Positions 22,840 to 43,465 of a DNA stretch of 64,000 nucleotides are shown here, piece by piece (positions within the stretch are counted from its first letter, which is position 1; each line of letters starts with the position of its first letter). The notes under the pieces were generated by a model. That model saw nothing but the letters and a program-made list of their open reading frames with translations. It did no database searches and was not told where the DNA came from. The position numbers and the translations under genes are program-made. Origin of the DNA: an uncultured Eubacteriales bacterium (GTDB lineage: Bacteria; Bacillota; Clostridia; Christensenellales; CAG-138); contig ONNZ01000011.1 in the NCBI GenBank assembly GCA_900319345.1, positions 6,411 to 70,410 on the forward strand, given 5' to 3'.

Positions 22840-22929
22840 ATCCCCAGTATACACCCCGCCACCCCATTGTGCAACGGGCAGAATGGATGTATACTATGGA
22901 CAAGTATGAAACGTGGGGAGGGGACGACC

Positions 22930-28243: not shown

Positions 28244-29836
28244 TTACAGGCTGAAATCCGGGGCGTTGTCCCGCTGGTAGGAGCACCAGTTGCCGTTTTC
28301 GATGAGCTCCTCCCGGGCAAGGAGCAGCAGGAGCGATTCGTCCTGGCCGTAGATGGAGAGCCGATCCAGTATCTTCTGGTAGAAGGCGGCCATCTTCACA
28401 TGATCCTCCACGCCCCGGGACAGGGACAGCTTCCCGTAGTAGTTGGAGATGAAGAGGGTGGCGGCGGAGATGCTCCCCAGCACCAGCTTGATAAGGGTCC
28501 GATACTCCTCCGCCTCCGGGATGGCGCCGAGGCGGGGGAAGAGGCCGCCGTACAGCACCTCGAACACCAGGGCCAAAAGGTACAGCACGATGCTGATCAG
28601 CAGGGCCGCGCCCACCACCCGGCCGCTGATGCGGAGCTTGGTCTGGGCCTTCTTTTGGGCCTTCCGGTGGTAATTGAACTGATCCTCCGCCCAGCAGGCC
28701 CGGATGTCGTGGCTTTCCTTCGGCGCCTCGCCCACGCAGAGGACGGTGATGGCCATGGCGATCCAGGGGGTCTCCTCCTGCTGGCTCCAGGGCAGCAGGG
28801 TGATGGCCTCCCGCCGGACCCCGGCGTAGCGCAGAAAGCCTTGGGCCCGCAGGCTCTCGGCCAGCACCCGGTACTCCAGGTACCGTCGGTGGCAGCTGGA
28901 CCGATAGGCGAACCGGGTCAGCACCCACGCAAGGAGCAGCGAAAGGCCGCACACCAGGATGAGCCAGTGCAGGTTCGCCTCGTCGTACAGCAGGAATGCG
29001 GCGGTGATCAGGGTGCTGAGCACGGCCAGCAGGATGAGGACGCGCCGATACACCTTAGCGAACCGCAGGCTTAGCCGGTCCGCCTGCTGATACACGGCCT
29101 CGATCCGATCGAGGAGGGGGTCCTCCTCCTGGCGCTCCGGCAGCAGGGGATAGGCGTCGGCGGTATCGGTCTTGTCTGCCAAAGCGTTGAACTCCTCCGT
29201 CCGGTCCATGAGCGTCTGCCAGGGCTCCCCGTCCCCCAGCCGCCGCACAGCGCCCGGGACGTTCGCCGCCTGCTCAGTTCGGGGCGTGAAAAGATGGATC
29301 ACCGCCGTGGAGGAGAAGAGGGGGGCGCTGTGGACGGGATGGTAGCTGCCGTGGAGGGCGAACCCCACGGCCTCCGCGGTGCCGCAGCCGGTTTTGGTGC
29401 CGGGGCCCCCGTCCCACAGGGCCAGGAGCACGTGGCAGTGGGTGGCCACGTAGATGCCGGCCTGCCGGTAGTAGAAATCCCGGTCGGGGGCTTGGGGCAG
29501 GGCCTCCGTGGCCGGGGTCACGAAGCGCTGCTCCGCCTTGGATAAAAGGTCCCGAAAGCTATGGAGGGCCGCCCCGGCGAAGTCCTGCTCGTACTCCGCC
29601 AGGGGGAGGGGCAGGGCCGCGACCAGGGGGATGCCCAGGCTGAGGGCGGCTTCGGCGCAGAGCTGGTCGGCCCCCTCGGCCAGACTGTTGAGCATGACCA
29701 TGGGGCTGTGGGGATAGCTCTCCCGCAGCCCTTCCAGCTCTCGCTTCACCCCCGCCAAGAGGGCGGGCCTGTCCTCCGGCCGGATGGCCCGGTGGCCCGT
29801 GACCCCTACCGTCAGGGGGATGCGTTCAGTTTCCAT
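28244..29836 (-). CDS. SLOG (LOG/DprA-like Rossmann) domain fused to a multi-TM, tandem SLATT-like membrane module
   Basis: This is a 530-aa ORF. The N-terminus has VGVTGHR, NSLAEGADQLCAEAAL (DprA-like S.lA.G.D..a..aAL) and WDGGPGTKTGCGTAEAV (LOG-like PGGxGTxxE). The C-terminal half has about 5 hydrophobic helices (VLILLAVLSTLITAAFLLY, WLILVCGLSLLLAWVL, VVGAALLISIVLYLLALVF, LIKLVLGSISAATLFISNYY). Amphipathic helices flank these helices. Confidence 0.6.
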   Translation of the reverse strand: METERIPLTVGVTGHRAIRPEDRPALLAGVKRELEGLRESYPHSPMVMLNSLAEGADQLCAEAALSLGIPLVAALPLPLAEYEQDFAGAALHSFRDLLSKAEQRFVTPATEALPQAPDRDFYYRQAGIYVATHCHVLLALWDGGPGTKTGCGTAEAVGFALHGSYHPVHSAPLFSSTAVIHLFTPRTEQAANVPGAVRRLGDGEPWQTLMDRTEEFNALADKTDTADAYPLLPERQEEDPLLDRIEAVYQQADRLSLRFAKVYRRVLILLAVLSTLITAAFLLYDEANLHWLILVCGLSLLLAWVLTRFAYRSSCHRRYLEYRVLAESLRAQGFLRYAGVRREAITLLPWSQQEETPWIAMAITVLCVGEAPKESHDIRACWAEDQFNYHRKAQKKAQTKLRISGRVVGAALLISIVLYLLALVFEVLYGGLFPRLGAIPEAEEYRTLIKLVLGSISAATLFISNYYGKLSLSRGVEDHVKMAAFYQKILDRLSIYGQDESLLLLLAREELIENGNWCSYQRDNAPDFSL

Positions 29837-31553
29837 ACACCGCCATGCCGCTGCGCTCGGCCAGGGACGGGATGTTGCGGATGGCGTCTCGATCGTAGTC
29901 CTTGATCTCCTCGGACAGCTGGTCGTAGGGCACCAGGTAGGGGGAGGTCTTCTTCTCGGCGTTCCGTTCGCCCAGCTTCCAGCCCCGGCTCAGGCGCTCC
30001 TGCATCCAGGCCTCGTGCTCCAGCTCGGCCATGAACTCCACCAGCTCCGGCGGGAATTCCTTCACGGCGCCCTTCTTGCCCTTGGGCCCCAGGCGGTAGC
30101 CCACCTGCTCCAGCCGGTCGCAGATGTTCTGGGCCTGGCGCAGGTTGCTGTACTTCAAATCATCGGGCAGCTGGGAGAAATCGGGGTAATCCAAAGGCCG
30201 CTCCGGGTGATCCTGGAGCTGCTTCTCGCAGTAGCGGGCGTGGATGGCGATGGCCAGCAGCTCGATATCCTTCAGCAGCGGCCGGGCGTTCACCTTCTGA
30301 AGCTGGGGCTTGAAGGGCTCGAAACTGTCCAGACTCTCCGCGTCCACGTCGAAGCCCAGGGGGAAGATGGCCTTGAGGTCCAGGAGCCCTTGCAAGAGCT
30401 CGATCTTCTCCCTACAGAACTTCTCGGGCAGGTGGCCGTGCCTCGTCACGTAGGTGGCGGAAAGGTATCCGTTCTTGACGGACAGGTGCACCGTGTCCGC
30501 CAGGGTGAAGGTCCGGGTCAGGATGCCGTGAGCCTCCCGGTTCCACTCCTGGAGCTCGTCGCAGAGGATCAGCAAAAAGGCGATGGGGTTCTTCTGGGCG
30601 GCCATGGGCCCGAGGTTGAAGGGCTTCTTCTGCAGCACGTTCCGATAGTAGTTGTGAAGGAGGATGGCCGTGGCGCTGTCGAGGATGGGCCAATAGAACC
30701 GCTCCGGGTGGTCGCCGGACATCTGGATGGCGTAGCCGTACCACTTGAGGATGATCATGGCGCTGTAGTAGCCGTGATCGATGAAGCCGGAGGCGGCCAT
30801 GTCGTTCACGAACCGGTCCACGGCCTTCTTGGTCTCCATGAGATCCGTGCCCAGGGTCTGGTGCACGTGGTGGGCCAAGAGGTCGTTGGGGGTCAAGAGG
30901 TCGATATAGGAGCAGCTCTCATAGGCGTCGTAGTAGGCCCGGGTGAAGGGGCGCTTGGGCACCACCTCCCGGATGTGGTTCAGCTCCGAGAAGTTCTCGA
31001 ATTTGATCTGGGCCTTGACCCGGACCTCGTCCCCGTCCGCGTCCGCCACCATGCGGATGAACCGGTTGATCTGGTGGCCCACGATCTCCACCGGGTAGCC
31101 CACGTCGTGGAACAGGGCCGCCACGCCCCAGCGGAAGAAGAACTCCTCGTGGGGGGTCTGGTAGGCGTAGATGTAGTCCTTCTCGGGCACGGCGCTGTCG
31201 AAGGCCTTCCGGTAGGCCTCGTTCTCGGCGTAGATGCTGAGGCCCGTCAAAAACACGTTCACCGCGTGGATGAAGTGGTCCCGCTGCTTGTCGATGAGGG
31301 TGGCGGCGGTGGCCTCGTAGTGTCGCAGGATGTCCACGAGGTCGATGAACGGGTCGTTCTTGCCGGGCAGGGTGATCCGATAGCTGTCGAAGAAGGCCCG
31401 GTAGACGGCGAAAGCGGTCTCCGGGGTCTCGCCGGACAGGAAGGTCGACACGGCGCCCCGCAGGAAGGACTTGTAGCTGTGGCCCTCCTGCAGGTCGGCG
31501 GCAAGGCTCAGCTGATCGAAAAATCGGTCCACGAAGGGGGAAAGATTGCTCAT
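29826..31553 (-). CDS. HD-domain phosphohydrolase fused to a C-terminal RyR (ryanodine-receptor-type) domain
   Basis: Based on ORF 29826..31583. The start MSNLSPFVDRF follows AAAGGAG. HD motifs are RDHFIHAVNVF and AALFHDVGYP, with IDHGYYS later. The C-terminus reads LAIAIHARYCEK...FMAELEHEAWMQERLSRGWKLGERNAEKKTSPYLVPYDQLSEEIKDYDRDAIRNIP, which matches the RyR-domain pattern. It overlaps the next gene by 11 nt. Confidence 0.65.
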   Translation of the reverse strand: MSNLSPFVDRFFDQLSLAADLQEGHSYKSFLRGAVSTFLSGETPETAFAVYRAFFDSYRITLPGKNDPFIDLVDILRHYEATAATLIDKQRDHFIHAVNVFLTGLSIYAENEAYRKAFDSAVPEKDYIYAYQTPHEEFFFRWGVAALFHDVGYPVEIVGHQINRFIRMVADADGDEVRVKAQIKFENFSELNHIREVVPKRPFTRAYYDAYESCSYIDLLTPNDLLAHHVHQTLGTDLMETKKAVDRFVNDMAASGFIDHGYYSAMIILKWYGYAIQMSGDHPERFYWPILDSATAILLHNYYRNVLQKKPFNLGPMAAQKNPIAFLLILCDELQEWNREAHGILTRTFTLADTVHLSVKNGYLSATYVTRHGHLPEKFCREKIELLQGLLDLKAIFPLGFDVDAESLDSFEPFKPQLQKVNARPLLKDIELLAIAIHARYCEKQLQDHPERPLDYPDFSQLPDDLKYSNLRQAQNICDRLEQVGYRLGPKGKKGAVKEFPPELVEFMAELEHEAWMQERLSRGWKLGERNAEKKTSPYLVPYDQLSEEIKDYDRDAIRNIPSLAERSGMAVYGN

Positions 31554-31618
31554 GTTTCTGCTCCTTTCGTTGCTTAGATACAATTATATCCGTTTCCGCG
31601 CCCAAAGGGAAGGGGGGA

Positions 31619-34600
31619 TCATTGGATTTCCAGCCTAAAAACGTACCCCTCGCCCAGGGAGTCGGCGGCTTCGGCCATGTCGCTGGACAGGTACAGCTGT
31701 CTAAGATCGTTCGGCAGCTCCCGCAGGCAGCTTAGGTCCGTGAGCTGGGGGTTCCAGCGAAGGTCCAGCTGCTCCAGCATGGGATGGGCGGCCACGAAGG
31801 CCCGAAGCTGCTCGTTGGTGATGCCCGAGCGGTGGCAGGAGAGATCGTGCATCTCCTTGCCCATCACGTGATCCAGCCACCGATCCACCGGCACGTTGTT
31901 CATGTTCAGCCCCCAGTAGACGGGCACCGCCTCCAACACCCCGTAGTCCTCGTAGGTGAGCTTGTTGCTGTCCGTCACGTCCAACGCCACCCAAAAGCCC
32001 CAGCTGTTGTAATCCTCCGACGTGCAGTAGCTATAGTCCACCCGTTCGAGGGGCGAGAAGTCCCGCACGTTGGTGCCGGACAGGCTGATGCTGACCAGGC
32101 GGGGCAACTGCTCGATGCCCGCGATGCTGTCGATGGGCTCGTTTCGCAGGCTGACGTCCTCCAGGGAGGCCGTCCGCCACAGGGCGGAGAAGTCGGTGAT
32201 CTTGCGGCATTCCTCGATGGTGATCCGCCGAAGCTGGGGGAAATCCTCCACGCCGTCCAACGTGGTCAAATCCTGGCCGTACAGGTCCAGCTGCTCCAGG
32301 TTCGGCAGCAAAGCGGCCAGCTCGCCCATGTCCGTCACGGCCCCGGCGAGCAGGGGCAGCCGTTCGTCGGTCTCGTTGCTGTGCAGATACAGCTTCGGCG
32401 GGTCGGTGACCCAGTCCTCCTCGAACCACCAGGGGCCGCCGGCGTAGACGTATTCGCCCGCGAGGGACAGGCTCTTGATGTACCGCCGCATCGCCTCCGG
32501 CTGGGCCTTCAGCTCCTTGAAGGTCATCATGGGCAGCTGGAAGGCCACGTCCTCCAGGGCGGAGCAGGCGGCCAGGGGCGACAGGTCCGTCACGGGGCTG
32601 CCGTTCACGTCCAGGCGCCGGAGAGCGTACAGGTTCTGTATCCCCTGGAGGGAGGCGACGCCGGTGTACTGGAACCGCAGCTCCTCCAGACTCTGGATCG
32701 TGAAGGCGGCGGAGGCGTCGGCGAGGGCCGGGCACTGCCGGATGTCCAGGTTCTTGAGATCGCCCATGGCCTGGATGCCCTCCAGGGAGGCGAGCTCCAG
32801 CTGGGCGTAGACGGTCAGCTCCCGAAGCCCCGTCAGCTTTTCAAGGACGGTCAGGTCCGTCAGCGTCCCCGGCTCCACGGGTATGCGCTCCTCCTCCCCG
32901 TCGTAGCGAAGGTACAGGGCGGGCGGGTCCGTGGCCCAGTCCTCCTCCACCCAGGCGCCCTCGGGCACCACCGCGTCCCCGGCCAACGTCAGCCGGCCGA
33001 TGCGTCCGAGGAGGGCGCTGGGGAGGCTGTCGATCTCCGCAAGGCTCGCAAGCTCGATGTCAGGCTGGACGGGCTCCCATCCGCCCTCCGGGTAGACGAC
33101 CTGATACGCCTCCAGCAGGCCGCTGTCCACCATGGCCTGGGCCTGCTCCATAAGATGGGCCGGGATCTGCAGGCTCTTGCCCTTCAGGTGGTAGAGGGGC
33201 GACAGGTCCGTGACCCCGTCCACGTCCATAAGGGAGATGCTGTACCAGTCCTGCTTATAGTTTTCGAAGCAGGACAGGTCCTTGAGGTCGAAGATGGTGG
33301 TGAGGGTGATGTTCTTGGTCACCACGTTTCCGAAGTCAGGCAGGCTGAACAGCCCCTCCAAATGGATCTCGTAGATGCTCCGCCCCGTCAGAGCCGACCA
33401 GTCGTAGAGCCGGGGGCAGTTATAGATCTCCAGCTCCTGCATCCTGGGCATCCCCTCCAGTCCGGCAAGGGAGGCGAGGTAGGGGCAGTCGTCCAGGATC
33501 AGCCGTCGGGCGTCGGGCTGGTCCAGCCCCTCCAGGGAGCGGACGCAGTGGAGCAGCAGCTCGTTGGTCACATGGGGGAGCAGGGTCACGTCCAGCCCCT
33601 CGCTCTGGTTGCCCCGGCCGCCCCGGTTCCACAGCTCGAAGTCAGTGACCGTGGCGTTCTGGACATAGGGCAGGGCGCTGCCGTTCCGGTCCGTGATGTT
33701 GAGATAGCTGTATTTTTCGATGGCGGCCAGGCCCTCCCAGTTCGGCACCTCCGCGATGCCGAAGGAGAAGTATTCCTTGTTCTCGATATCCCAGAGGAAG
33801 TCCACGTCGTTGACGTCGACCCCATACAGCTGCAGGTCCCGGAGCTTGGGGAGCTTGGTCACCGGTGTCAAATCTCGCAAGGCGAAGCACTCGTGCATGG
33901 TCAGGGACTCGAGAGCCGTGCAGCCCGAGAGGGCGGAGATGTCCGTCAGGTTCCGCAGGTTCCAGGTGTTGATCTGCCGCAGCCTCACATGGTCCTCCAG
34001 CCCGTGGAAGGACCGCAGGGTCTCCATGTTGGAGAGGCTCAGCTGTTTCAGCGATCGGCAGCCCGCCAGGAAGGACAGGTCGCTGACAGGGCAGTCCTGC
34101 AAGTAGAGTTTGTCCAGATTGACGCAGGAGGAGAGGGCGGTCAGGTCCCTGAGCTGGAAGCAGCCGTCGATGTCCACACTGTCCAGCAGCACCTTGCTGT
34201 TGAGCCCCTGGAGGCTGGTGAGCCTCTCCATGCCCCGCAGATGCACTCTGCTCAGGGCGCTGGCGTTCGAAAGGCAGGTCAGGTCCAAAATGGGCACGTT
34301 GGCAAAGTGCACATGATCCAGCTTCCGGCAGTTTTTCAACCCGGACAGGTTGACGGTCCGCTGCTCCCCTTCCAGGCTCAGGTTCAAATCCCTCAGGCTG
34401 GCGGGGCCGAATCCGGACAGGTCCGCTTCGGCGGTCCCGTACAGGTTCATGAACACGGTGTTGAGCTGCGGGCACTCGTTGAGGGGGGAGAAGTCCAGCA
34501 CCGGGCCGTGGTAGTTGAACACCTGCAGTCGGCGGCCCTTCACCCCGGAGATGTCGTCGATGGCGCAGTCGAAGAGCTCCACGCAGTCCAGCTTCTGGAG

Positions 34601-35404
34601 GCCCGACAGGTCCGGCAGCGTGCCCTCCACCTGGACCAGCGTCAGCAGCATCAGGTTCTTCATATAGGGCAGGAAGCTCAGATCCCCCCAATCGTGGAGG
34701 GCGTACTCGTGGCCGTCCTCGGCACTGTACCAGTGGGCCCGGCCCTCCTCCACGCTGAAGCTTCGATTGGCGACCTGCTCCACGCCCACCCGGGAGATGC
34801 CCCGGTCCGCCAGGGTCCCGTCGTCCTCGCTGAAGGCGTAGAAGCCGTTCCCCACGATGATGAGCTCGTGGACCTGCTCCAGCTCCTGCAGGGTCAGGTC
34901 CACCTCCTTCGGGAACACGGGCTCCGGAGTGGGCGTGGCGGGGATCGGTGTGGGGGGCAGCGGCGGCGGGACTTGCCGCTTCTGAAACAGGACGATGCCG
35001 CCCACCAGGAGCAGCGCCACAGCCGCCAGGGACAGGATCAGGGGCAGGCGGTTCCTTCTATCGCCCATGGCCGCCGTGGCGATCCGGCCCGCCAGCTCCT
35101 CCGGCCCGTATTTCTGGCCGTCCAGGCCGTGCCGGGCCATGAGGGCGCGCTGGAGCTCCTCCGGGGGCGTGGACCCGTCCAGGTTCACCGGGATCACCAG
35201 CGCCCGGCCCGCGTTGAGCCGGAAGAATTGGTCCGCCTCCGGGCTGTCCGCCGACAGGCTTTCCGACAGGAACAGCATCAGGGCGTCCCCCTTCCGGGGG
35301 TCTGCGGCGCGCACGGTGACGCCCTTCTTCTTCAGGGCGTCCAGGATGGGCTTCACGCGGCTCTCGTCCGCGGGGGCGTAGAGGGGATAGATGGCTCGTT
35401 TCAT
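31619..35404 (-). CDS. TIR-like domain / single TM / large extracellular leucine-rich-repeat protein (1,261 aa)
   Basis: The N-terminus is a flavodoxin-like beta-alpha-beta pattern (AIYPLYAPADESRVKPILDALKKKGVTV...ALMLFLSESL...PEAD...ALVIPVNLDG). An Arg-rich stop-transfer (GDRRNR) precedes the TM helix LPLILSLAAVALLLVGGIVLF, then a Pro-rich linker. About 1,050 aa of ~22-24-aa LRRs follow (L..L..L.L..C..L.DLS.L). Confidence 0.65.
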   Translation of the reverse strand: MKRAIYPLYAPADESRVKPILDALKKKGVTVRAADPRKGDALMLFLSESLSADSPEADQFFRLNAGRALVIPVNLDGSTPPEELQRALMARHGLDGQKYGPEELAGRIATAAMGDRRNRLPLILSLAAVALLLVGGIVLFQKRQVPPPLPPTPIPATPTPEPVFPKEVDLTLQELEQVHELIIVGNGFYAFSEDDGTLADRGISRVGVEQVANRSFSVEEGRAHWYSAEDGHEYALHDWGDLSFLPYMKNLMLLTLVQVEGTLPDLSGLQKLDCVELFDCAIDDISGVKGRRLQVFNYHGPVLDFSPLNECPQLNTVFMNLYGTAEADLSGFGPASLRDLNLSLEGEQRTVNLSGLKNCRKLDHVHFANVPILDLTCLSNASALSRVHLRGMERLTSLQGLNSKVLLDSVDIDGCFQLRDLTALSSCVNLDKLYLQDCPVSDLSFLAGCRSLKQLSLSNMETLRSFHGLEDHVRLRQINTWNLRNLTDISALSGCTALESLTMHECFALRDLTPVTKLPKLRDLQLYGVDVNDVDFLWDIENKEYFSFGIAEVPNWEGLAAIEKYSYLNITDRNGSALPYVQNATVTDFELWNRGGRGNQSEGLDVTLLPHVTNELLLHCVRSLEGLDQPDARRLILDDCPYLASLAGLEGMPRMQELEIYNCPRLYDWSALTGRSIYEIHLEGLFSLPDFGNVVTKNITLTTIFDLKDLSCFENYKQDWYSISLMDVDGVTDLSPLYHLKGKSLQIPAHLMEQAQAMVDSGLLEAYQVVYPEGGWEPVQPDIELASLAEIDSLPSALLGRIGRLTLAGDAVVPEGAWVEEDWATDPPALYLRYDGEEERIPVEPGTLTDLTVLEKLTGLRELTVYAQLELASLEGIQAMGDLKNLDIRQCPALADASAAFTIQSLEELRFQYTGVASLQGIQNLYALRRLDVNGSPVTDLSPLAACSALEDVAFQLPMMTFKELKAQPEAMRRYIKSLSLAGEYVYAGGPWWFEEDWVTDPPKLYLHSNETDERLPLLAGAVTDMGELAALLPNLEQLDLYGQDLTTLDGVEDFPQLRRITIEECRKITDFSALWRTASLEDVSLRNEPIDSIAGIEQLPRLVSISLSGTNVRDFSPLERVDYSYCTSEDYNSWGFWVALDVTDSNKLTYEDYGVLEAVPVYWGLNMNNVPVDRWLDHVMGKEMHDLSCHRSGITNEQLRAFVAAHPMLEQLDLRWNPQLTDLSCLRELPNDLRQLYLSSDMAEAADSLGEGYVFRLEIQ

Positions 35405-35433
35405 GGGGGTTCCTTTCTATAGTCCGGTGTGTC

Positions 35434-38400
35434 TCAACCCACTTGCAGCTCGAACCCGTACCCCTCCCCCAGGGAGGCTTTGGCCTGGGCCATGTTGGGA
35501 GACATCCGGACCTTCCGCAGGTTTTCCAGATTCAGCAGGCAGCTCACGTCGGTCAGCTGCGGGTTCCAGGAGATCTGCACCTCCTCCAGCTCCGGATGGG
35601 CCTCCACGAAGGCTTTGAACTGTTCGTTGGTGAAGCCGCAGTCGTCGGCGTTGAGCCGCTTCACGGGCTTTCCCGCCAGATGATCCAGCCACAGCTTGGC
35701 GGGCACGTTGTGGAGCTCCAGCTGGGAGAAGCCGGGGATGCCCTCCAGGAAGGCGTAGGCGTCCTGGGGCAGGCTGTCGCTGTTCATCACGTTCAGGGCA
35801 AGCGACACGCCCGGCTCCCGGTCCTGGGTCATGGCATAGGTGAAGTCCACCTGACCCAGGGGCGAGAAGTCCCGGATGTTGGTCCCCGCCACCCGTACCT
35901 GGCGCAGGTGCTTGAGCCCCTCAATGCCCTCGAGAGAGGTGATCTTCGTGTTGCACACCTCCAGCATCTCCAGGTCGTAGAGGTTCTGCACCCCCTGGAG
36001 GGAGGCCACGGGGCAGCGCTCGAAGTTGATCTCCTTGAGCCCCTGGAGGGTGAAGGCGGCGGAAACGTCCGTCAGGTTCGGGCTGAACATCACCCTGAGC
36101 CGCTGCAGGTTCTCGAGAGCCTGGACGCCTTCGAGGCTGGTTAACGGCTGCCACCACAGGTTCAGATCCTCCAAGCCCGTCAGCACGCTGAGCTTGGAGA
36201 GGTCCGTGATCCGGGTCCCGGGCTTGTCGATCTTCTTCTGCTCGCCCGTGGCCCGATCCTCGACGAAGGCGGGCACGTTCTGCTGCCCCCAATCGGACCA
36301 GAAGTTCGTGGTATCGTCGTTCACCAGCTCATCGCCGATGATGGTGAGCCGCTTCACATGCTTCAACAGGGAGGGGGGCAGGGTCTCCAGCTCATCGAGG
36401 CTCAGCAGCTGTACCTGCATGTCGCTGGGGTCCCAGCCGCCGTCGGGATAGACGATCTCGTACTTCTTGAACCGCTTGTCCTCCACCAGCCCCTTGGCCT
36501 GCTCGCCCACCTGGGGCGGCACCTCCAGCTTGTTTCCATGGAGCCGGAACAGGGGGGCGAGGCTGGCGATCTGAGGCAGGTCCTCCAGACGGAAGCTGTA
36601 GCTTCGATCATCGCTGATCCCGTCAAGACAGCTTAGATCAGGCAGCACGTCCTCCGACAGCTTTTCCAATGTCAGCTCCTGGAAGGCAACGGCGCTGAAA
36701 TCGGGCAGCGTCAGCACCCGTTCGATCTCGAGCCGGTGGAAGGTCTTTCCTTCGATCCCCGACCAGTCCGAGAGACGGGGGCAGTTTTCCACGGTCAGGA
36801 TGCTGTCCGCCTTGCCGAAGCCGGTCAAATTTTCGATGCCGGCGAAGGAGGTGAAGTAGGGGCAGTCCTGGATCCAGAGCTTCGTACTGAAGTTCATCTC
36901 CCGGATGCCGGTGAGATCCCGGTTGAGGCAGTCGCACAGGTCCAGCTCCCCGGTCACGTTGGGCAGGGTGGAGAGGTCCACCAGACCCCCGTTGTAGATC
37001 ATCAGCTGGCGGATGGTTTTTCCCTCCAGATAGGGTGCCACCGCAGCGTAGTTGCCGCAGGTGTTCGCATGCACGTAGTTGAAGGTGTCGATGGCGTCGA
37101 TGCCCGAATAATCGCAGGGACCGGCGATGCAGAACTCCAGGACCACGTTCTTTTTGATCCGCAGCTCCTTCAAAAAGTCCAGACTGCCGATGTGGTTCGC
37201 CCCGAACAGAGCGATGCTTTGGAGCCGGGGGAGCCGGCCCAGCACGCTCACGTCCGTCAGGTACTCCAAGGGACCGTTTCCGGAGAGACGGAACTCGACG
37301 AGGCTGCTGCAGCCTTCCAATGGGGAGATGTCCCTGAGCAGAGGGGCGTCGTTGATGTTGACGATCTTCAGGTACCGATGATCCTCCAGTCCCTCCAGGG
37401 TCCTTAGCCCTTCCAGATCGTCGATCCGCAGCTCCTCCAGCAGGGGCGCCCCTTCGAGGCCAGTGAGGGTGCGCAGAGAATCCGTCCAACGCAGCTCCAG
37501 CTTCTTAAGCTTACCGGCGTTGGCGAGGCAGCTTAGATCGGTGAGCTGAGGGTAGCCGTCGACGAGCAGCTCCTGCAGGTTGGGACACTGGAGCAGGAAG
37601 GAGAAGTCCACCCCTTCCACACCAAAGCCGGACCCCAGGCCAAAACTGACCAGCTTGGGCGGATGGAAAGAGGAAAGGTCCACCCGGGGGGAGCCCACCA
37701 GGTCCAGATGGGCGGAGCGCAGATTCTGGCAATCCGTAAGGGGCGAGAAATCGCTGACGCCCGCGCCGTGATATTCGATGTTCTGGATGGTGCTTCCCCG
37801 GAGCCCTTCCAGATCGGAAAGGTCGCTGTAGCCCACCATCACGTCCCGCAGGTCCGTAAGCCCCGAAAGGTCCGGCAAAGTGGCGGTCACGTTGTACAGG
37901 GAGAGGAACCGCAAATTGGGCAGCAGAGCCAGCCAGCTGAGGTCGTCCAGCGTCACGTGGGGATACTCGTGACCGTCCTCCTTGCTGTAGAAGTGGACGC
38001 CGTCATCCATCCAGCCGCCGTAGGCAAAGTCCTCGTCGCGGCGCGGGTTCACGTACTTGCCCTTGGTGTTCTTCTCGTCAAAGGTATAGAAGTGGAACTC
38101 GTCGCCCATGAACACCACCTCGGCCACCTGCTCGAGATCCACATCGATGCCGTCCACCCGGGGCGGCTCCGTAGGGGCCGGCGTGGCCGTGGCGGGGACC
38201 TCCGTGGCGGGCGGCGTCGGCGGGGGCGGGGTCTGCCGCTGCCGGAACAGGAGGATGGCGCCTACGGCCAGGAACGCCGCCGACCCGATCAAGGTCAGGA
38301 TCAGGGGCAGGAGGCTCTTTTTATCGCCCTTGACCGCCTTGGCCACAAGGTCGCTGAGCTCCTCTGCGCTGTACTTGCGGCCGTCCAGGGTGTGGCGGGC

Positions 38401-38667
38401 CATGAGGGCGTTCTGCAGCTCCTCCGGGGGCGTGGACCCGTCCAGGTTCACCGGGATCACCAGTTCCCGGCCCGCGTTCAGCCGGAAGAAATCGTCCACG
38501 GCGGGGCTGTCCAACCCCAGGTTTTCCGACAGGAACAACACCAGGGCGTCCTTCTTGCCGGGCTTCGCGCTCCGCACCGTGACGCCCCTTTGCCCCAGGG
38601 CATCCAGGATGGGCTTCACCCGGCTCTCGTCCGCGGGGGCGTACAGGGGATAGATGGCTCGCTTCAT
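35434..38667 (-). CDS. TIR-like domain / single TM / extracellular leucine-rich-repeat protein (1,077 aa), paralog of 31619..35404
   Basis: Based on ORF 35434..38682. The start MKRAIYPLYAPADESRVKPILDAL follows AAAGGAAAG. The first ~100 aa are largely identical to the downstream paralog. The TM helix is LLPLILTLIGSAAFLAVGAILLF. The LRR ectodomain is divergent. Confidence 0.65.
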   Translation of the reverse strand: MKRAIYPLYAPADESRVKPILDALGQRGVTVRSAKPGKKDALVLFLSENLGLDSPAVDDFFRLNAGRELVIPVNLDGSTPPEELQNALMARHTLDGRKYSAEELSDLVAKAVKGDKKSLLPLILTLIGSAAFLAVGAILLFRQRQTPPPPTPPATEVPATATPAPTEPPRVDGIDVDLEQVAEVVFMGDEFHFYTFDEKNTKGKYVNPRRDEDFAYGGWMDDGVHFYSKEDGHEYPHVTLDDLSWLALLPNLRFLSLYNVTATLPDLSGLTDLRDVMVGYSDLSDLEGLRGSTIQNIEYHGAGVSDFSPLTDCQNLRSAHLDLVGSPRVDLSSFHPPKLVSFGLGSGFGVEGVDFSFLLQCPNLQELLVDGYPQLTDLSCLANAGKLKKLELRWTDSLRTLTGLEGAPLLEELRIDDLEGLRTLEGLEDHRYLKIVNINDAPLLRDISPLEGCSSLVEFRLSGNGPLEYLTDVSVLGRLPRLQSIALFGANHIGSLDFLKELRIKKNVVLEFCIAGPCDYSGIDAIDTFNYVHANTCGNYAAVAPYLEGKTIRQLMIYNGGLVDLSTLPNVTGELDLCDCLNRDLTGIREMNFSTKLWIQDCPYFTSFAGIENLTGFGKADSILTVENCPRLSDWSGIEGKTFHRLEIERVLTLPDFSAVAFQELTLEKLSEDVLPDLSCLDGISDDRSYSFRLEDLPQIASLAPLFRLHGNKLEVPPQVGEQAKGLVEDKRFKKYEIVYPDGGWDPSDMQVQLLSLDELETLPPSLLKHVKRLTIIGDELVNDDTTNFWSDWGQQNVPAFVEDRATGEQKKIDKPGTRITDLSKLSVLTGLEDLNLWWQPLTSLEGVQALENLQRLRVMFSPNLTDVSAAFTLQGLKEINFERCPVASLQGVQNLYDLEMLEVCNTKITSLEGIEGLKHLRQVRVAGTNIRDFSPLGQVDFTYAMTQDREPGVSLALNVMNSDSLPQDAYAFLEGIPGFSQLELHNVPAKLWLDHLAGKPVKRLNADDCGFTNEQFKAFVEAHPELEEVQISWNPQLTDVSCLLNLENLRKVRMSPNMAQAKASLGEGYGFELQVG

Positions 38668-38700
38668 AGTCTTTCCTTTCAAATACTGTATGGATGATGC

Positions 38701-39915
38701 TTACGGCACCAGCACCACGGTGAAATCACAGGTCTCCGGCCAAACGAGGGGCAGCATGTCCGCGCTGACGGTGACGGTCTTCAGCGACGGCAGATCCGCC
38801 AGGGGACTTAGGTCCTTCACGCCGCTGTGTTCAAGATGCAGCGTCTCCAGCCGGGGCAGGTCCGTGAGCCCCGTCAGGGTTTCCAACGACCTGTCACCGG
38901 ACAGGTACAGCTCCTTCAGCATCACGAGGCCGCTGAGGGCCCGGGCGCTGGACAGGGGCTGATACACCAGGGCCAGCTTCTCGAGATAGGCCATCTTCCC
39001 GATGATGGACAGATCCCGCACCTTGCCCTCCTGGGGCTTGCTGCCGTTCACCAGGCATTCCCCCTGGTGGGTGAAGGCCGTGTGTTCCAGATCCGGCGCG
39101 TACATGTTGCCCACGATGGCCAGTTCCGTCACCGCCGCCAGCTCGTTCAGCTTGATCTTCTCCGTGGCCCCGACGGTCCCCAGGATCACCCGGACGGCCT
39201 TCTCCTGATCCGTGTCGGGGAAGTCCACCTCGTCCATGCCCGGGGGGAAGGAGGGCGTGGGGGGCGGGGTGCTCGTGGCGTCAGGGGTGGCTGTAGGCGT
39301 GGGCGCGGGGGTGGCCGTGGCCGTGGCGGTGGGGGAGGGGGTCGGCGTCGAGCCCCCATAAATCAGCTGGTCCCACCAGCCGGCGTAGACCCCGTAGGCC
39401 CCCGCCAGGGCTGCCCCGAACAGGATCGCGGACAGCAGGAACCCGAACAGGCCCCGGGGAAGCTTCTCCCACCACTTGCGGTAGAAGGCCCCCTTGAGTT
39501 TCTTGTGCCGGGTGACCTGGTCCGCCCGGGCCTTGGCGTCCCCGGGGGTGGGGAGGGGAAGGCAGCTTTTTAATAAGGTCTCCCACTCGCTGCCGGGCTC
39601 AGGCCGACTGTCGTCCAGGGCGAAGTACAGCACGGGCTTTTTCAGGGCTACGGCGGTCTCGATCTCCGAACGGCAGTTGCTGGAGGCGAGGGCCGTCCTG
39701 GACAGGAAGAACAGGACCATGGCCGAGCAGCGCATGTGGGTCTCGATGTTCTTGGGCCAGTCGTTGCCCGCCGGGATGCCCTCGTCGTACCAGAGCCGGA
39801 CCTTTCGCTGGTGGAGCAGGGTGATGGTCTCCAGGACCTCCGGGGAATCCCGGTGAGAATAGCTGATGAACAGATAGGGTCGCTTGCCCTCGTAGGGGGT
39901 GAAGAAGGCGCTCAT
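38701..39915 (-). CDS. canonical TIR domain / single TM / Pro-Thr linker / short LRR ectodomain protein (404 aa)
   Basis: The N-terminus follows the TIR_2-type pattern, including the W/N..xE glutamate position. It reads RPYLFISYSHRDSPEVLETITLLHQRKVRLWYDEGIPAGNDWPKNIETHMRCSAMVLFFLSRTALASSNCRSEIETAVALKKPVLYFALDD. The TM helix is GLFGFLLSAILFGAALAGAYGVY. A (TPxP)n linker follows, then LRRs (LKELYLSGDRSLETLTGLTDLPRLETLHLEHSGVKDLSPLADLPSLKTV). Confidence 0.75.
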   Translation of the reverse strand: MSAFFTPYEGKRPYLFISYSHRDSPEVLETITLLHQRKVRLWYDEGIPAGNDWPKNIETHMRCSAMVLFFLSRTALASSNCRSEIETAVALKKPVLYFALDDSRPEPGSEWETLLKSCLPLPTPGDAKARADQVTRHKKLKGAFYRKWWEKLPRGLFGFLLSAILFGAALAGAYGVYAGWWDQLIYGGSTPTPSPTATATATPAPTPTATPDATSTPPPTPSFPPGMDEVDFPDTDQEKAVRVILGTVGATEKIKLNELAAVTELAIVGNMYAPDLEHTAFTHQGECLVNGSKPQEGKVRDLSIIGKMAYLEKLALVYQPLSSARALSGLVMLKELYLSGDRSLETLTGLTDLPRLETLHLEHSGVKDLSPLADLPSLKTVTVSADMLPLVWPETCDFTVVLVP

Positions 39916-40760
39916 GGCTGGTCACCTCCCGCCACGATCAGGGTGTAGCTGTCGTAGAGCTCCGGCTGCTCCGGGGCCCCCTGGGCCGCCGCCTCCGACA
40001 GGATCAGGGTGGTGAGGCGGGGGAGAAGGGCAAGCTCCTTTGGGTTTTCGGGCAGTTGGGACAGATACAGGCTCTCCAGCTCGGCCACCGCTTCCTCCGT
40101 GATGGGGCCGCCGCCGATGGCGAAGCGGACCGCCTCCCGCAAGGCTTCGTCCTGGAAGAGGACCGCGTCCTCCGGCGGGGCGACCTCCTCCTGGGGCGGC
40201 GGCGCGGGGGGATTCAGATACCGATACGCCCCGGCGCCTCCGGCCAGCAGCAGGGCCAGCACGATCAGCAGGACGCTGATCCGCCGGAGCCACAGCCGGT
40301 CGTAGACGGGCAGCGGGTCCCCCCGATAGAGTTGAGAGAAGTAGGGGCTGTGGAAGATGGCGCCCACCAGCTCCGAGGCGTTGGTCCCCGGGGTGACGGA
40401 GGAGAACTGGCCCGTGAGTCCCAGGGAAAGGCCCCCGTCCCCGCCGTCCGTGTTCAGCACCAGGATGGGCTGCCGGGCCTTCTGGCAGACCAGCAGCTGG
40501 TTCTTCAGCTCCATGTCCCGCCGGGCGCTGTCCGTGAGGAACAGCACCGTGAGCCCGGCCCCCAGCATGCGCTGGCTTCGAGCGTTCCCGCTGGTCCTGT
40601 CCCGGGAGTAGCCCACGCAGTACCACACCCGGCAGCCCCGGAGCAGCAGCTGCCGCAGCAGGGGCCGGACCTTGCGCTCGTCCCGGTCGGAGAAGCACAG
40701 GTGGATGTAGGGCTCCGCGCCCATATAGGGGGGATAGTAGGTTTCGGTTTTGCTGGCCAT
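39912..40760 (-). CDS. divergent TIR-like domain / single TM / short ectodomain protein (282 aa)
   Basis: The TIR-like part reads EPYIHLCFSDRDERKVRPLLRQLLLRGCRVWY...LTVLFLTDSARRDMELKNQLLVCQKARQPILVLNTD. The TM helix is RRISVLLIVLALLLAGGAGAY. An ~100-aa C-terminal segment has one or two LRR-like units. An ATGA overlap joins it to the next gene. Confidence 0.55.
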   Translation of the reverse strand: MASKTETYYPPYMGAEPYIHLCFSDRDERKVRPLLRQLLLRGCRVWYCVGYSRDRTSGNARSQRMLGAGLTVLFLTDSARRDMELKNQLLVCQKARQPILVLNTDGGDGGLSLGLTGQFSSVTPGTNASELVGAIFHSPYFSQLYRGDPLPVYDRLWLRRISVLLIVLALLLAGGAGAYRYLNPPAPPPQEEVAPPEDAVLFQDEALREAVRFAIGGGPITEEAVAELESLYLSQLPENPKELALLPRLTTLILSEAAAQGAPEQPELYDSYTLIVAGGDQP

Positions 40761-40813
40761 GGCCTGCCCCTTCCTTGAGGCATATTCCCCTCAAGATATA
40801 CTTCAACATATAC

Positions 40814-40842
40814 AGTATATCTTTTTTTCTCCCCCGTGGCAA
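40814..40842 (-). promoter_or_regulatory. sigma-70-like promoter of the TIR-LRR cluster
   Basis: On the minus strand the layout is TTGCCA, a 17-nt spacer, then TATACT. Downstream are a 7-bp hairpin (cttgagg...cctcaag) and the RBS AAGGAAGGGG before the ATG at 40760. Confidence 0.5.
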
Positions 40843-40963: not shown

Positions 40964-40976
40964 ACCTCTCGAACGT

Positions 40977-41048
<72 letters not shown>

Positions 41049-41176
41049 TAACAGCCGACGGCTGTTATCTGGTGCGGAGCCGAGCGCTGCCTGTGGCAGG
41101 AGCAGCGAGGCGAAGCACGGGCAAAACAAGGAGAAAACGTGCACGGTGCGCACGTTTCGATTATGTTTTGCCCCCG

Positions 41177-41575
41177 TCAGGGTTGTAGGTTCGAGCCCCT
41201 GTCCGCGGCTCTGTCTTTTTCAAGAAACAGCTTCATCCTCTCCAGGGCCTCCGGGCTGACGGTGTGCTCCATTTCGCGAGCGTCCCGTTCGGCGGCGGCA
41301 GGGTCCACGCCCATGGCGATCAGACAGGCTTTCAGGACGTGGTGTCGGTCCAGGGCCTGCAGGGCCGCTTCCCGCCCGGCGGTCGTCAGGCGGATCCGCT
41401 TGTCCCCGTCCATGGTCAGACACCCGCCCTCCCGCAGGCGCTTCATGGCCTTGCTTACGCTGGGCTTGGTCACATGGAGGGCTTTGGCTACGTCCAGGGA
41501 GCGCACGACGCCGTTCTGCTGCTCTATAACCAGGATCGTTTTCAAATACTCCTTGCCGCCTTTGTGCAGTTCCAT
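41177..41575 (-). CDS. DtxR/MntR-family metal-dependent transcriptional repressor (no SH3-like domain)
   Basis: The 132-aa ORF reads EYLKTILVIEQQNGVVRSLDVAKALHVTKPSVSKAMKRLREGG...RHHVLKACL...DAREMEHTVSPE. Confidence 0.85.
   Translation of the reverse strand: MELHKGGKEYLKTILVIEQQNGVVRSLDVAKALHVTKPSVSKAMKRLREGGCLTMDGDKRIRLTTAGREAALQALDRHHVLKACLIAMGVDPAAAERDAREMEHTVSPEALERMKLFLEKDRAADRGSNLQP
41179..41198 (+). repeat. 20-nt direct repeat of the tRNA-Asn variable/T-arm segment (AGGGTTGTAGGTTCGAGCCC)
   Basis: It is identical to 41018-41037 inside the tRNA. The copy does not fold into a T-arm. It lies 130 nt downstream of the tRNA 3' end and supplies the last 6 codons and part of the stop codon of the DtxR-family gene on the opposite strand. 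Confidence 0.85.
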
Positions 41576-42438: not shown

Positions 42439-42689
42439 TCAAAACGACCTTGAAGATCGACGGCATGATGTGCGGCATGTGCGAGGCCCACGTAGCGGAG
42501 GCCATCCGCCGGGCGGTCCCCGCTGCCAAGAAGGTCTCCGCCTCCCGGAGCAAGGGGGAGGCCACCTTCCTGACGGAGGACGCCGTGGACGAAGGGGCCT
42601 TGAAGGCGGCCATCGACGCCACGGGCTACACCTGCCTGGGGATTTCCTCCGCACCCTGTGAAAAGAAGGGCTGGTTCGGGTGGAGATAA
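42435..42689 (+). CDS. heavy-metal-associated (HMA) domain protein, CopZ-like
   Basis: An ATGA overlap joins it to the previous gene. MIKTTLKIDGMMCGMCEAHVAEAIR carries the GMxCxxC motif. Confidence 0.8.
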   Translation: MIKTTLKIDGMMCGMCEAHVAEAIRRAVPAAKKVSASRSKGEATFLTEDAVDEGALKAAIDATGYTCLGISSAPCEKKGWFGWR

Positions 42690-43465
42690 GGACGGTCCTG
42701 TGGGGGCTGCTGATCCCCTTCCTGGGCACGGCGGCGGGCGCCGGGTGCGTGTTCTTCCTGCAGAAGGACCTGAAGGTCAGCGTCCAGCGGGCCCTCACCG
42801 GCTTTGCGGCGGGGGTCATGGTGGCGGCGTCCATCTGGAGCCTCATCGTCCCGGCTATGGAGCAGAGCGCCCCTCTGGGCCGCTGGGCCTTCCTGCCGGC
42901 CTTCGTGGGCTTCTGGCTGGGCATCGGGTTCTTGCTGCTCCTCGATCATGTGATCCCCCACCTCCATCGGCGGATCGATCAGGCGGAGGGCCCCAAGAGC
43001 CATCTGTCCAGGACCATCATGATGATCCTGGCCGTGACCCTCCACAACATCCCCGAGGGCATGGCGGTGGGCGTGGTCTACGCGGGGCTTTGCACGGGGT
43101 CCGCCAACATCACGGCGGGGGGAGCCCTGGCCCTGGCGTTGGGCATCGCCATCCAGAACTTCCCGGAGGGGGCCATCATCTCCATGCCCCTCTACGCCGA
43201 GGGCAAGAGCAAGCCCAAGGCCTTCTGGCTGGGCGTCCTCTCCGGGGCGGTGGAGCCCCTCTTCGGCGGGCTCACCGTCATCGTGGCGGGGCTGGTGGTG
43301 CCGGCCATGCCCTATCTGCTGTCCTTCGCCGCGGGGGCCATGCTCTACGTGGTGGTGGAGGAGCTGATCCCCGAGATGTCGGCGGGGGAACATTCCAACA
43401 TCGGCGTCCTGTTTTTCGCCGTGGGCTTCAGCCTCATGATGGCCCTGGACGTGGCGCTGGGATAA
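42680..43465 (+). CDS. ZIP-family (ZupT-like) divalent metal transporter
   Basis: The 261-aa polytopic ORF has LAVTLHNIPEGMAVG and LGIAIQNFPEGAIIS, the paired HNxPEG/QNxPEG motifs. Confidence 0.85.
   Translation: MEIRTVLWGLLIPFLGTAAGAGCVFFLQKDLKVSVQRALTGFAAGVMVAASIWSLIVPAMEQSAPLGRWAFLPAFVGFWLGIGFLLLLDHVIPHLHRRIDQAEGPKSHLSRTIMMILAVTLHNIPEGMAVGVVYAGLCTGSANITAGGALALALGIAIQNFPEGAIISMPLYAEGKSKPKAFWLGVLSGAVEPLFGGLTVIVAGLVVPAMPYLLSFAAGAMLYVVVEELIPEMSAGEHSNIGVLFFAVGFSLMMALDVALG

Follow-up and report, generated by a model that had tools for sequence, protein, structure and literature searches.

A six-gene operon from an uncultured member of the Clostridia most likely encodes an outside-in TIR signaling system

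Organization of the operon

The window analyzed here, a 64,000-nucleotide (nt) stretch of DNA from an uncultured Eubacteriales bacterium (contig ONNZ01000011.1 of assembly GCA_900319345.1, positions 6,411 to 70,410), carries on the minus strand between positions 31619 and 40760 four open reading frames (ORFs) arranged head to tail, all of which were confirmed by ORF calling and are referred to here as G1 to G4. Each encodes an N-terminal TIR or TIR-like domain followed by a single predicted transmembrane (TM) helix and an ectodomain that, in G2, G3 and G4, is built of leucine-rich repeats (LRRs). The operon extends beyond these four genes, as two co-oriented genes (28244-31583), one for a protein pairing HD-type motifs with a ryanodine receptor (RyR) domain (HD-RyR) and one for a SLOG-SLATT protein, belong to it and provide the best clue to the function of the unit. 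The interval 28244-40842 on the minus strand can thus be described as a six-gene operon that most likely encodes an outside-in TIR signaling system (Table 1).

The six genes are separated by small intergenic gaps with no convincing terminator between them. The G1 stop and the G2 start share the sequence ATGA, a 4-nt overlap that recurs in homologous loci L001, L016, L055, L073 and L078, the other gaps among G1 to G4 measure about 30 nt, and the HD-RyR and SLOG-SLATT genes overlap by 11 nt. The start of G3 is probably the ATG at 38667 (MKRAIY...), which matches the start of G4 and of the homologs, and the ATG at 31553 is the probable start of the HD-RyR protein. A weak terminator-like hairpin with a 5-bp stem and a T-rich tail is present in the last codons of G4 ahead of the HD-RyR gene (31645-31662, minus strand); the number of terminator-like sites in the region does not exceed the shuffled expectation (12 versus 7.6 +/- 2.9).

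The TIR domain of G2

The N-terminal domain of G2 is a canonical TIR domain, matching Pfam TIR_2 (PF13676) at E = 2.1e-15, with a score of 57.7 bits where the cut-off is 28. Among proteins of solved structure, the NADase TIR Cat1 is closest in sequence, and in the alignment of G2 SSNCRSE84I with Cat1 SDWCWDEL, Glu84 falls on the Cat1 glutamate. This residue is invariant in 80 of 80 distinct G2 orthologs together with Ser78, Asn80, Cys81 and the W42-G46 segment (WYDEG), and the BB-loop segment WYDEGIPAG.DW is likewise present and invariant. The orthologs that retain the catalytic motif span down to about 36-40% overall identity. Judged by these residues, G2 is the only one of the four proteins that keeps the complete catalytic TIR signature, and only one of the four TIR domains, that of G2, appears to be catalytic.

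Non-catalytic TIR-like paralogs

The TIR-like domain of G1 (about residues 17-135) has no Pfam hit of its own above threshold, and its assignment is carried by the comparison of the G1 and G2 families with hhalign, which aligns them with 99.2% probability (E = 2e-19) across the TIR domain, TM helix, linker and LRR cap. The most distant G1 homolog, P0222, carries Pfam TIR_2. The BB-loop segment is present in G1, and the column of the catalytic glutamate is variable among 78 orthologs (A/S/R/N/D/T/Q), with Asp82 and Lys86 conserved. G1 is thus predicted to be a full-length paralog of G2 with a TIR domain that lacks the catalytic glutamate.

G3 and G4 share an N-terminal domain of about 115 residues that has no Pfam match above threshold, and the database search turned up only 32 close relatives, not one of which carries a Pfam annotation. 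Among members of the G3/G4 family, 24 of 40 match TIR_2 below threshold (best E = 8e-5) and no other family recurs. Comparison with the G2 TIR domain by hhalign returned a probability of 96.5% when close homologs were used and of 87.7% for a set of 40 diverse homologs. The AlphaFold2 (AF2) model of G4 residues 1-144 has an alpha/beta fold with a predicted local distance difference test score (pLDDT) of 83, and the Foldseek search of the Protein Data Bank (PDB) with this model placed seven TIR chains on top (six of BtpA/TcpB and one B. cereus TIR), followed by top matches that were mostly TIR domains, including Hydra TRR-2, MAL, SARM1 and MyD88. E values ranged from 3e-4 upward with modest TM-scores (0.5-0.57), and non-TIR folds were interleaved among the matches, with AmiR at rank 8 and CheY-like receivers and flavodoxins mostly lower. 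Relative to G2, both the MAFFT and the hhalign alignments reveal a deletion of approximately 13-15 residues around the BB loop, and the column of the catalytic glutamate is variable (A/R/T/K/E/Q). The N-terminal domain of G3 and G4 is a shortened TIR-like domain that is probably non-catalytic.

Two other interpretations of this domain were rejected. Asp58, next to the column of the catalytic glutamate and considered as a substitute for it, is near-invariant in close homologs but is D or E in only 51 of 79 members of the wider family. A profile of the domain searched against PDB sequences returned only designed alphaRep/HEAT proteins (E down to 8e-9), with no single stretch significant; this assignment was discarded because the score adds up hits to a single amphipathic helix (ESRVKPILDALKKKG-like) and because the model from AF2 is of the alpha/beta type, with TIR folds leading the structural matches. 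The first helix of the domain (PADESRVKPILDALKKKG) resembles the designed alphaRep/HEAT-PBS consensus, which we judge to be a chance resemblance, and one member of the G3/G4 family matches Pfam HEAT_PBS weakly.

Membrane topology and LRR ectodomains

Each of the four proteins contains exactly one strongly hydrophobic 19-residue stretch (Table 1), and a sequence scan identified no N-terminal signal-peptide-like segment in G1 to G4. Within 15 residues of the helix, all four proteins have four to five Lys or Arg residues on the N-terminal side versus zero to two on the C-terminal side, and the same bias toward the N-terminal side was found in 73 of 79 G2-type, 68 of 77 G3/4-type and 51 of 75 G1-type orthologs. 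Since the N-terminal domain is folded and not preceded by a signal peptide, and since the charge is distributed in this way, an N-in/C-out (type II) topology is predicted. Pro/Thr-rich linkers follow the helix. By these measures G1 to G4 are predicted type-II single-pass proteins that would keep their TIR or TIR-like domains on the cytoplasmic side and expose internalin-type LRRs on the outside of the cell.

Pfam LRR_4 and related families match G2, G3 and G4. The ectodomain of G3 comprises about 935 residues of LRR sequence (LRR_4, E = 1.5e-23) and that of G4 about 1120 residues (LRR_4, E = 1.9e-37; LRR_EndoS, E = 3.5e-26). The AF2 model of full-length G2 (pLDDT 83.5) resolves the TIR domain (residues 14-135), a helix (154-177), a disordered Pro/Thr-rich segment (187-222) and a solenoid (230-404); the solenoid, modeled with a pLDDT above 90, returned InlF, InlH, InlC2 and InlB as its top Foldseek matches (E = 7e-8 to 1e-5). 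NCBIfam internalin models also match the LRRs of G2 to G4, with E values down to 6e-28 and scores far below the membership cut-offs. The G1 ectodomain of about 100 residues has no LRR match of its own, and its homology to the G2 LRR domain is confined to the cap and the beginning. A crude count of LRR units by regular expression was uninformative, and the LRR calls therefore rest on Pfam and Foldseek. The long paralogs G3 and G4 are 74% identical in the N-terminal domain versus 39.5% over a blastp alignment that includes that domain (G3 residues 1-924). No LPXTG or GW anchor was evident in the C-terminal sequences, which were inspected without a motif search.

An earlier reading of the sequence alone (the sequence-only reading) had proposed a cytoplasmic N-terminal TIR domain, one TM helix and extracellular C-terminal LRRs in four adjacent paralogs. 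This architecture is borne out by Pfam, hhalign, AF2 and Foldseek, hydropathy and charge bias, as are its constituent proposals that Arg/Lys-rich segments before the helix keep the TIR domain inside, that Pro/Thr-rich linkers follow, and that the catalytic glutamate is kept in the protein encoded at 38701..39915, which is G2 and only G2. Two generalizations had to be narrowed: a TIR domain in all four proteins holds for the canonical G2 and its full-length paralog G1 and becomes a truncated, TIR-like domain in G3 and G4, and an LRR array in all four holds for G2, G3 and G4 and not for G1. The structural comparison that the reading had suggested ended with TIR structures at the top for the G4 N-terminal domain, and neither a non-TIR fold, nor the want of a TM helix, nor a non-LRR identity of the repeats, any of which it had named as contrary evidence, emerged.

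The HD-RyR and SLOG-SLATT proteins

The C-terminal RyR domain (PF02026) of the HD-RyR protein scores 53.6 bits against a cut-off of 27.4 (E = 2.7e-14), and the search against PDB sequences recovered RyR repeats (E = 1.6e-22) and a bacterial 'putative ryanodine receptor' (3nrt, E = 8e-11). In the N-terminal region, 24 orthologs from two subfamilies share invariant residues RDH93..H96, H149-D150, D259-H260, H300 and D332, set in the motifs RDH..H, FHDxGYPxE, DH, HN and CDELQxW. These residues correspond to those of an HD-type metal-dependent phosphohydrolase, and the region is accordingly described as HD-like. As no hydrophobic helix is present, the protein is called cytosolic. The family divides into two deeply divergent subfamilies with approximately 26% mutual identity, the first consisting of proteins of about 575-590 residues that are 58-91% identical to the copy in the window and the second of proteins of about 590-655 residues with an insertion of about 32 residues in the RyR domain. 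The invariant residues of HD type and RyR type are all found in both subfamilies, and the G1-G2-G3/4 set may be accompanied by either.

The SLOG-SLATT protein matches Pfam DUF4231 narrowly above the cut-off (25.9 versus 24.7 bits) and NCBIfam SLATT_1, SLATT_3 and SLATT_4 below threshold (E = 7e-5 to 4e-4). Three stretches pass the hydropathy threshold (residues 266-284, 292-310 and 407-425), two of them paired at 266-310, and a fourth hydrophobic segment at about residues 447-470 was read from the sequence rather than computed. The N-terminal SLOG-like domain has the invariant motifs GVTGH, LAxGxD and LLALWDG..GT. The SLOG family YAcAr (cpYpsA-related) is matched by 19 of 22 orthologs, with a best E of 2.4e-6 and all scores below the 28.2-bit cut-off, and also below threshold by four of ten remote relatives, one of which additionally matches DprA. 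The single sequence had no match among PDB sequences, and a short-motif match of the family profile to KtrA in the same database was dropped as spurious. Two relatives, P0259 (836 residues) and P0304 (811 residues), have two tandem SLOG-like domains before the SLATT region, with GVTGHRD and LALWDG each occurring twice.

Distribution and conserved linkage

The G2 family comprises more than 370 full-length relatives of about 390 residues with the TIR_2-LRR_4 combination, some of which are named in NCBI only as 'TIR domain-containing protein'. There are at least 143 matches in species-representative genomes, and the 80 retrieved of these 143 all derive from metagenome-assembled genomes (MAGs) of uncultured Clostridia, mostly labelled ruminant gut and including Oscillospiraceae, Ruminococcaceae, Lachnospiraceae, Christensenellales, Ca. 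Limivicinus and Saccharofermentans. The six window proteins were mapped by tblastn on 83 fetched loci, 35 of which are well flanked (at least 9 kb on both sides). A G1-type and a G3/4-type gene accompany G2 in 35 of the 35 well-flanked loci, in the order G1, G2, G3/4, and across all 83 loci the tblastn coordinates follow this order wherever the genes are present. The long G3/4-type gene occurs in one to three tandem copies per locus. A G1-type gene, a G2-type gene and one to three G3/4-type genes thus form an obligate triad in rumen and gut Clostridia.

The linkage of the triad to the two partner genes is frequent and not universal. The HD-RyR gene was found in 27 of the 35 well-flanked loci (12 times upstream of G1 and 15 times downstream, nearly always on the same strand) and the SLOG-SLATT gene in 28, with both present in 26 and neither in six. 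Because the HD-RyR gene sits either upstream or downstream and yet on the same strand, its linkage to the triad survives rearrangement. Flanking genes vary between lineages. The SLOG-SLATT protein is 51-58% identical in most loci where G2 is about 42-50% identical, and 37-40% identical in the most divergent loci. A phage origin was considered and rejected, as the G2 family is absent from the viral contigs of IMG/VR and the SLOG-SLATT protein from the GenBank phage set.

Partner modules beside other TIR genes

In two further loci, the IMG/VR contig L093 (IMGVR_UViG_3300048836_000958) and the matching metagenome contig L094 (Ga0074193_1001117), an HD-RyR gene precedes a SLOG-SLATT gene that is 38% identical to that of the window. 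The accompanying protein here is of a different kind (491 residues, L093:2782-4257, minus strand, with neighbors at L093:1-918 and L093:931-2577) and consists of a TIR_2 domain with the glutamate, the basic segment KRFWKNSR, a hydrophobic helix and a DUF5050 domain. Two serine recombinases lie nearby in L093, and the other flank of L094 encodes a TIR-TPR protein and a DUF4062-NB-ARC STAND protein. From this arrangement, the same effector pair recurs with a different 'TIR-in, sensor-out' protein, which suggests that a wider class of transmembrane TIR sensors exists.

Six plasmid-borne SLOG-like relatives were found in PLSDB as short stand-alone proteins, of about 105-160 residues in the loci that were opened. 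These three, L084 (Methylorubrum pB146-1), L085 (B. subtilis pBS72) and L086 (Agrobacterium pTiCFBP5877), each place the gene in an operon with a TIR gene and a caspase-family gene, and the remaining three are Agrobacterium plasmids with the same match. A TIR and caspase-family pair is the composition of type IV Thoeris (bioRxiv 10.64898/2025.12.03.692087), and operons of this type IV-like kind may contain, in the short SLOG-like gene, a third component that has gone unnoticed. Plasmid-borne genes with RyR domains adjoin a cluster of cyclase, Pycsar-effector and TIR genes and a giant SIR2 gene, an anecdotal observation.

Surroundings of the operon

The window is ordinary chromosome, encoding NrdD, SipL, SerRS, ArgRS, Alr, FeoB and LarA. 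At one end of the operon, past the SLOG-SLATT gene, lie convergent MBOAT-like and DHHW-like genes, named from their translations; at the other, upstream of G1, are the tRNA-Asn gene and an MntR-like gene. No integrase or repeat was seen beside the tRNA-Asn gene, and the operon bears no sign of being an integrated island.

Genes of metal homeostasis are abundant around the operon, with a DtxR/MntR-like repressor (41177-41575, minus) and a ZIP-type transporter (42680-43465, plus) recognized from their translations only and FeoB (45799-47769, plus) and a cation-efflux protein (16526-17653, minus) recognized by Pfam. The gene at 14787-16253 (minus) encodes a SipL/SPOCS spore-coat assembly domain (Pfam, E = 1e-14), which makes it probable that the source organism, a member of the Clostridia, forms spores. 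Two predicted envelope or secreted proteins (22177-22854, minus, and 26726-28186, plus) have long Pro/Thr-rich linkers like those of G2 to G4. By their translations only, one ends in a barnase-like ribonuclease sequence and the other is DHHW-like and paired with the MBOAT-like gene at 25298-26713. In this organism, linkers of this kind seem to be common to exported proteins in general.

Table 1. Coordinates of the operon genes, their domains and adjoining signals in the window
Feature	Position	Strand	Basis
Promoter-like site TTGCCA-17-TATACT, upstream of G1	40814..40842	minus	Consensus scan; consensus match only
AAGGAAGGGG ribosome-binding site	directly before G1 ATG	minus	Read from sequence
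G1, 282 aa, short paralog	39912..40760	minus	ORF; hhalign to G2 family
G1 TM helix, aa 161-179	40224-40280	minus	Hydropathy
G2, 404 aa, canonical TIR	38701..39915	minus	Pfam TIR_2 and LRR_4; AF2 model
G2 TIR domain, aa 14-135	39511-39876	minus	Pfam; AF2 model
G2 TM helix, aa 155-173	39397-39453	minus	Hydropathy
G2 internalin-type LRR domain, aa 230-404	38704-39228	minus	AF2 model; Foldseek
G3, long paralog, 1082-aa ORF from TTG 38682 or 1077 aa from ATG 38667	35434..38682	minus	ORF
G3 truncated TIR-like N-domain	38323-38667	minus	Homology to G4
G3 TM helix, aa 127-145 (numbered on the 1082-aa ORF)	38248-38304	minus	Hydropathy
G4, 1261 aa, long paralog	31619..35404	minus	ORF; LRR hits; AF2 model of N-domain
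G4 truncated TIR-like N-domain	35060-35404	minus	AF2 model; Foldseek; hhalign
G4 TM helix, aa 122-140	34985-35041	minus	Hydropathy
HD-RyR protein, 575 aa from ATG 31553 (ORF reaches TTG 31583)	29826..31553	minus	Pfam RyR; invariant motifs
RyR domain of HD-RyR protein, C-terminal	29871-30047	minus	Pfam RyR
SLOG-SLATT protein, 530 aa	28244..29836	minus	Pfam DUF4231; YAcAr below threshold
SLOG-like domain of SLOG-SLATT protein, about aa 1-200	29237-29836	minus	YAcAr hits below threshold; context
Two 2-TM SLATT-type modules of SLOG-SLATT protein, aa 241-493	28358-29116	minus	DUF4231; hydropathy
tRNA-Asn (GTT), divergent, 216 nt upstream of G1	40976-41049	plus	

Discussion

The operon is best regarded as specifying a novel version of TIR signaling, in which a set of transmembrane LRR-TIR receptors is combined with SLOG-SLATT and HD-RyR partners. 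Its nearest counterparts are found among the Thoeris systems, and the locus is not a demonstrated Thoeris system. Type VII Thoeris consists of a TIR protein (ThsB) and a SLATT effector (ThsH) with canonical cyclic ADP-ribose (cADPR) as the signal (Yirmiya et al., bioRxiv 10.64898/2025.12.03.692087); type I pairs a TIR protein with the SIR2-SLOG protein ThsA, whose SLOG domain binds 3'cADPR, and type III is cited as several TIR proteins with a SLOG effector (same preprint). SLOG domains of the YpsA clade have been described as sensors of cADPR variants and SLATT as a permeability effector regulated by ADP-ribose (ADPR) derivatives (PMC9503650), and neighborhoods of TIR and SLATT genes have been noted in papers of the Aravind group. 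The operon resembles type VII in placing a gene for a TIR domain with the catalytic glutamate beside a SLATT-type multi-TM gene, with the same expected logic of a TIR-made ADPR derivative acting on a membrane effector. It differs in that the TIR protein is anchored in the membrane as a predicted receptor, with LRRs outside the cell, and is joined by two kinds of non-catalytic TIR-like paralogs, in the N-terminal SLOG-like domain, the two SLATT modules and the added HD-RyR gene, and in its position outside defence islands with only weak matches to ThsB in PADLOC. With types I and III it shares a putative SLOG-superfamily domain as the presumed receptor of the TIR product, and with type III also several TIR paralogs per operon, whereas here the output is SLATT rather than SIR2, the SLOG-like domain is YAcAr/YpsA-related by sub-threshold hits and the TIR proteins are membrane-anchored.

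The proteins also share with animal Toll-like receptors (TLRs) an LRR ectodomain, a single TM helix and a TIR domain in the cytoplasm as well as sets of paralogs with non-catalytic TIR partners, and the proposal of the sequence-only reading that the module order is opposite to that of TLRs was confirmed. TLRs are type-I proteins with a C-terminal TIR domain, whereas G1 to G4 have a predicted type-II topology with an N-terminal TIR domain, no signal peptide and C-terminal LRRs; these LRRs belong with those of bacterial internalins, death-domain adaptors are absent, and where the TIR domains of TLRs are scaffolds that of G2 looks enzymatic. Because the type-I topology is lacking, the proteins are not TLRs, and most simply the same domains were assembled independently, with no TLR ancestry. 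In plant TIR-NB-ARC-LRR (TNL) receptors the TIR activity is switched on by oligomerization after LRR-mediated recognition. They likewise have an N-terminal TIR domain and C-terminal LRRs, so that the new feature is the membrane topology rather than the domain order: TNLs are cytosolic with an NB-ARC oligomerization module, whereas here a TM helix takes its place and the LRRs lie outside the cell. The Listeria internalins (InlB, InlF, InlH and InlC2) share the LRR fold and the helical cap and do not share the N-terminal signal-anchor helix with a cytoplasmic TIR domain; G2 to G4 have no signal peptide and score below the NCBIfam cut-offs. The protein with the DUF5050 domain from L093 and L094 has the same order of internal TIR domain, TM helix and external sensor and the same two partner genes, and differs in its ectodomain and in being a single TIR gene on the opposite strand within a region rich in recombinase and STAND genes; it is itself uncharacterized.

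Various domain fusions appeared in early catalogues of bacterial TIR proteins, which may or may not have included a TIR-TM-LRR protein. In the literature that was accessible, neither targeted reading of a TIR diversity survey and recent reviews nor full-text searches brought up a description of such a bacterial protein, which falls short of proving its absence, membrane-anchored or extracellular-domain TIR sensors are not described in the bacterial TIR signaling literature examined, and the Thoeris preprint makes no mention of an LRR-carrying TIR protein (bioRxiv 10.64898/2025.12.03.692087).

The architecture of the proteins is solid, and the mechanism that follows is inferred. G1 to G4 would form a hetero-oligomeric receptor whose long LRR ectodomains, which diverge fast, bind a ligand that is extracellular or part of the cell wall, the leading guess being a phage particle or receptor-binding protein, and ligand binding would cluster the cytoplasmic TIR domains. 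In known TIR enzymes the active site forms only on oligomerization, and the non-catalytic domains of G1 and G3/4 may scaffold or gate assembly of the G2 active site. That the paralogs constitute a receptor and co-receptor set, as previously suggested, is consistent with the fixed order of the triad in all 35 loci and with the ATGA overlap of G1 and G2, although not proven by them, and the suggestion that the first gene is adaptor-like fits the absence of the catalytic glutamate from G1. G2 would then cleave NAD+ to a cADPR-type messenger, the SLOG-like domain would bind it and open or assemble the SLATT modules, and these would depolarize or permeabilize the membrane, leading to growth arrest or death. 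The HD-RyR protein may hydrolyze the messenger, thereby setting a threshold or resetting the system, or alternatively serve as a second signal-responsive effector. We regard such an outside-in pathway, in which the G2 signal gates the SLOG-SLATT protein in a Thoeris-like system with an outward-looking sensor, as an even call.

Several observations weigh against this pathway. The N-terminal region of the HD-RyR protein has no match to a Pfam HD family even at E<=10, and the SLOG assignment draws on sub-threshold Pfam hits and context. The SLOG-SLATT family is so large (5916 clusters at E<=1e-3) that most of its members work without TIR-LRR proteins. Six of the 35 well-flanked loci have only the triad, surrounded by housekeeping genes, and neither an HD-RyR nor a SLOG-SLATT gene occurs within 10 kb. 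The neighbors of the operon in the window are themselves housekeeping genes (SerRS, ArgRS, Alr, MBOAT, tRNA-Asn, MntR-like and ZIP), with no defence island or mobile element. PADLOC returned only weak ThsB-like matches (E = 1.7e-5) and called no known defence system, and the named families in NCBIfam gave nothing more than hints of internalin-like LRRs and of SLATT. All triad carriers found are uncultured MAGs, and the absence of the G2 family from IMG/VR also speaks against a classical defence system.

We hold only tentatively, and consider rather doubtful, the specific proposal of an 'inverted Toll-like receptor', in which the LRRs of a hetero-oligomeric surface receptor would recognize a phage particle or another foreign surface protein before or at genome entry and a TIR-made messenger would open the SLOG-gated SLATT pore. 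An alternative use of the same receptor, which appears unlikely, is physiological sensing instead of phage defence, with surface proteins of the host, the plant-fibre community, protozoa or neighboring cells, or the state of the envelope, as the input and a reversible change of membrane potential or dormancy as the output of the TIR/SLOG-SLATT/HD module. Such a role would suit a probably spore-forming organism with its SipL gene, a system broadly present in one guild (ruminant and gut Clostridia, at least 143 matches) and missing from viral contigs, and a locus with housekeeping surroundings, which mobile and defence genes adjoin neither in the window nor in the six triad-only loci. Against it, every characterized pairing of TIR with SLATT or TIR with SLOG is anti-phage, the neighbors of the related HD-RyR/SLOG-SLATT lineage (serine recombinases, a STAND NTPase and further TIR genes) are typical of defence islands, and the long LRR paralogs have multiplied in tandem and diverged fast, which fits an arms race.

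It is less probable still that G2 is its own effector, its clustering causing bulk NAD+ depletion as in SARM1 and TIR-STING-type NADases, with the HD-RyR and SLOG-SLATT genes forming an independent system nearby. The strictly conserved glutamate, the six loci that have neither partner gene within 10 kb and the far wider distribution of the SLOG-SLATT family relative to the triad speak for it; against it stand the co-location of both genes on the same strand in 26 of 35 loci despite their changing position relative to the triad, the small gaps and lack of convincing terminators in the window, and the independent lineage in which these two genes accompany another kind of TIR-TM-ectodomain protein. 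That G1 to G4 are surface adhesins or envelope scaffolds whose TIR-like domains only oligomerize or anchor, with no enzymatic signaling, is very improbable, since the want of the catalytic glutamate in three of four N-terminal domains and the internalin-like LRRs, a class known from adhesins and invasins, have to be set against a link of the triad to nucleotide-signal modules and a G2 catalytic motif and BB loop that are invariant in 80 of 80 orthologs down to about 36-40% identity, which is hard to explain without catalysis.

Should the proposal of an 'inverted Toll-like receptor' hold, it would be, as far as the literature searched extends, the first outside-in pattern-recognition receptor of TIR/Thoeris-type bacterial immunity, and together with the TIR-TM-DUF5050 relatives it would represent a wider class of transmembrane TIR sensors. 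The fixed 1:1:n set of a TIR domain lacking the glutamate, a catalytic TIR domain and one or more truncated TIR-like domains could show how non-catalytic paralogs regulate a catalytic one. The prokaryotic RyR domain in a TIR-linked operon is suggestive in view of cADPR, which the discussion of the Thoeris preprint reports both as a bacterial TIR product and as a modulator of the animal ryanodine receptor (bioRxiv 10.64898/2025.12.03.692087). Restriction of the listed carriers to uncultured Clostridia of the rumen and gut may explain why the family has been overlooked. The connection of a TIR enzyme to LRRs on the outside of the cell would mean that bacteria, too, can link recognition at their surface to TIR/NAD-derived second messengers, the strategy of animal TLRs arrived at independently and with the orientation reversed.

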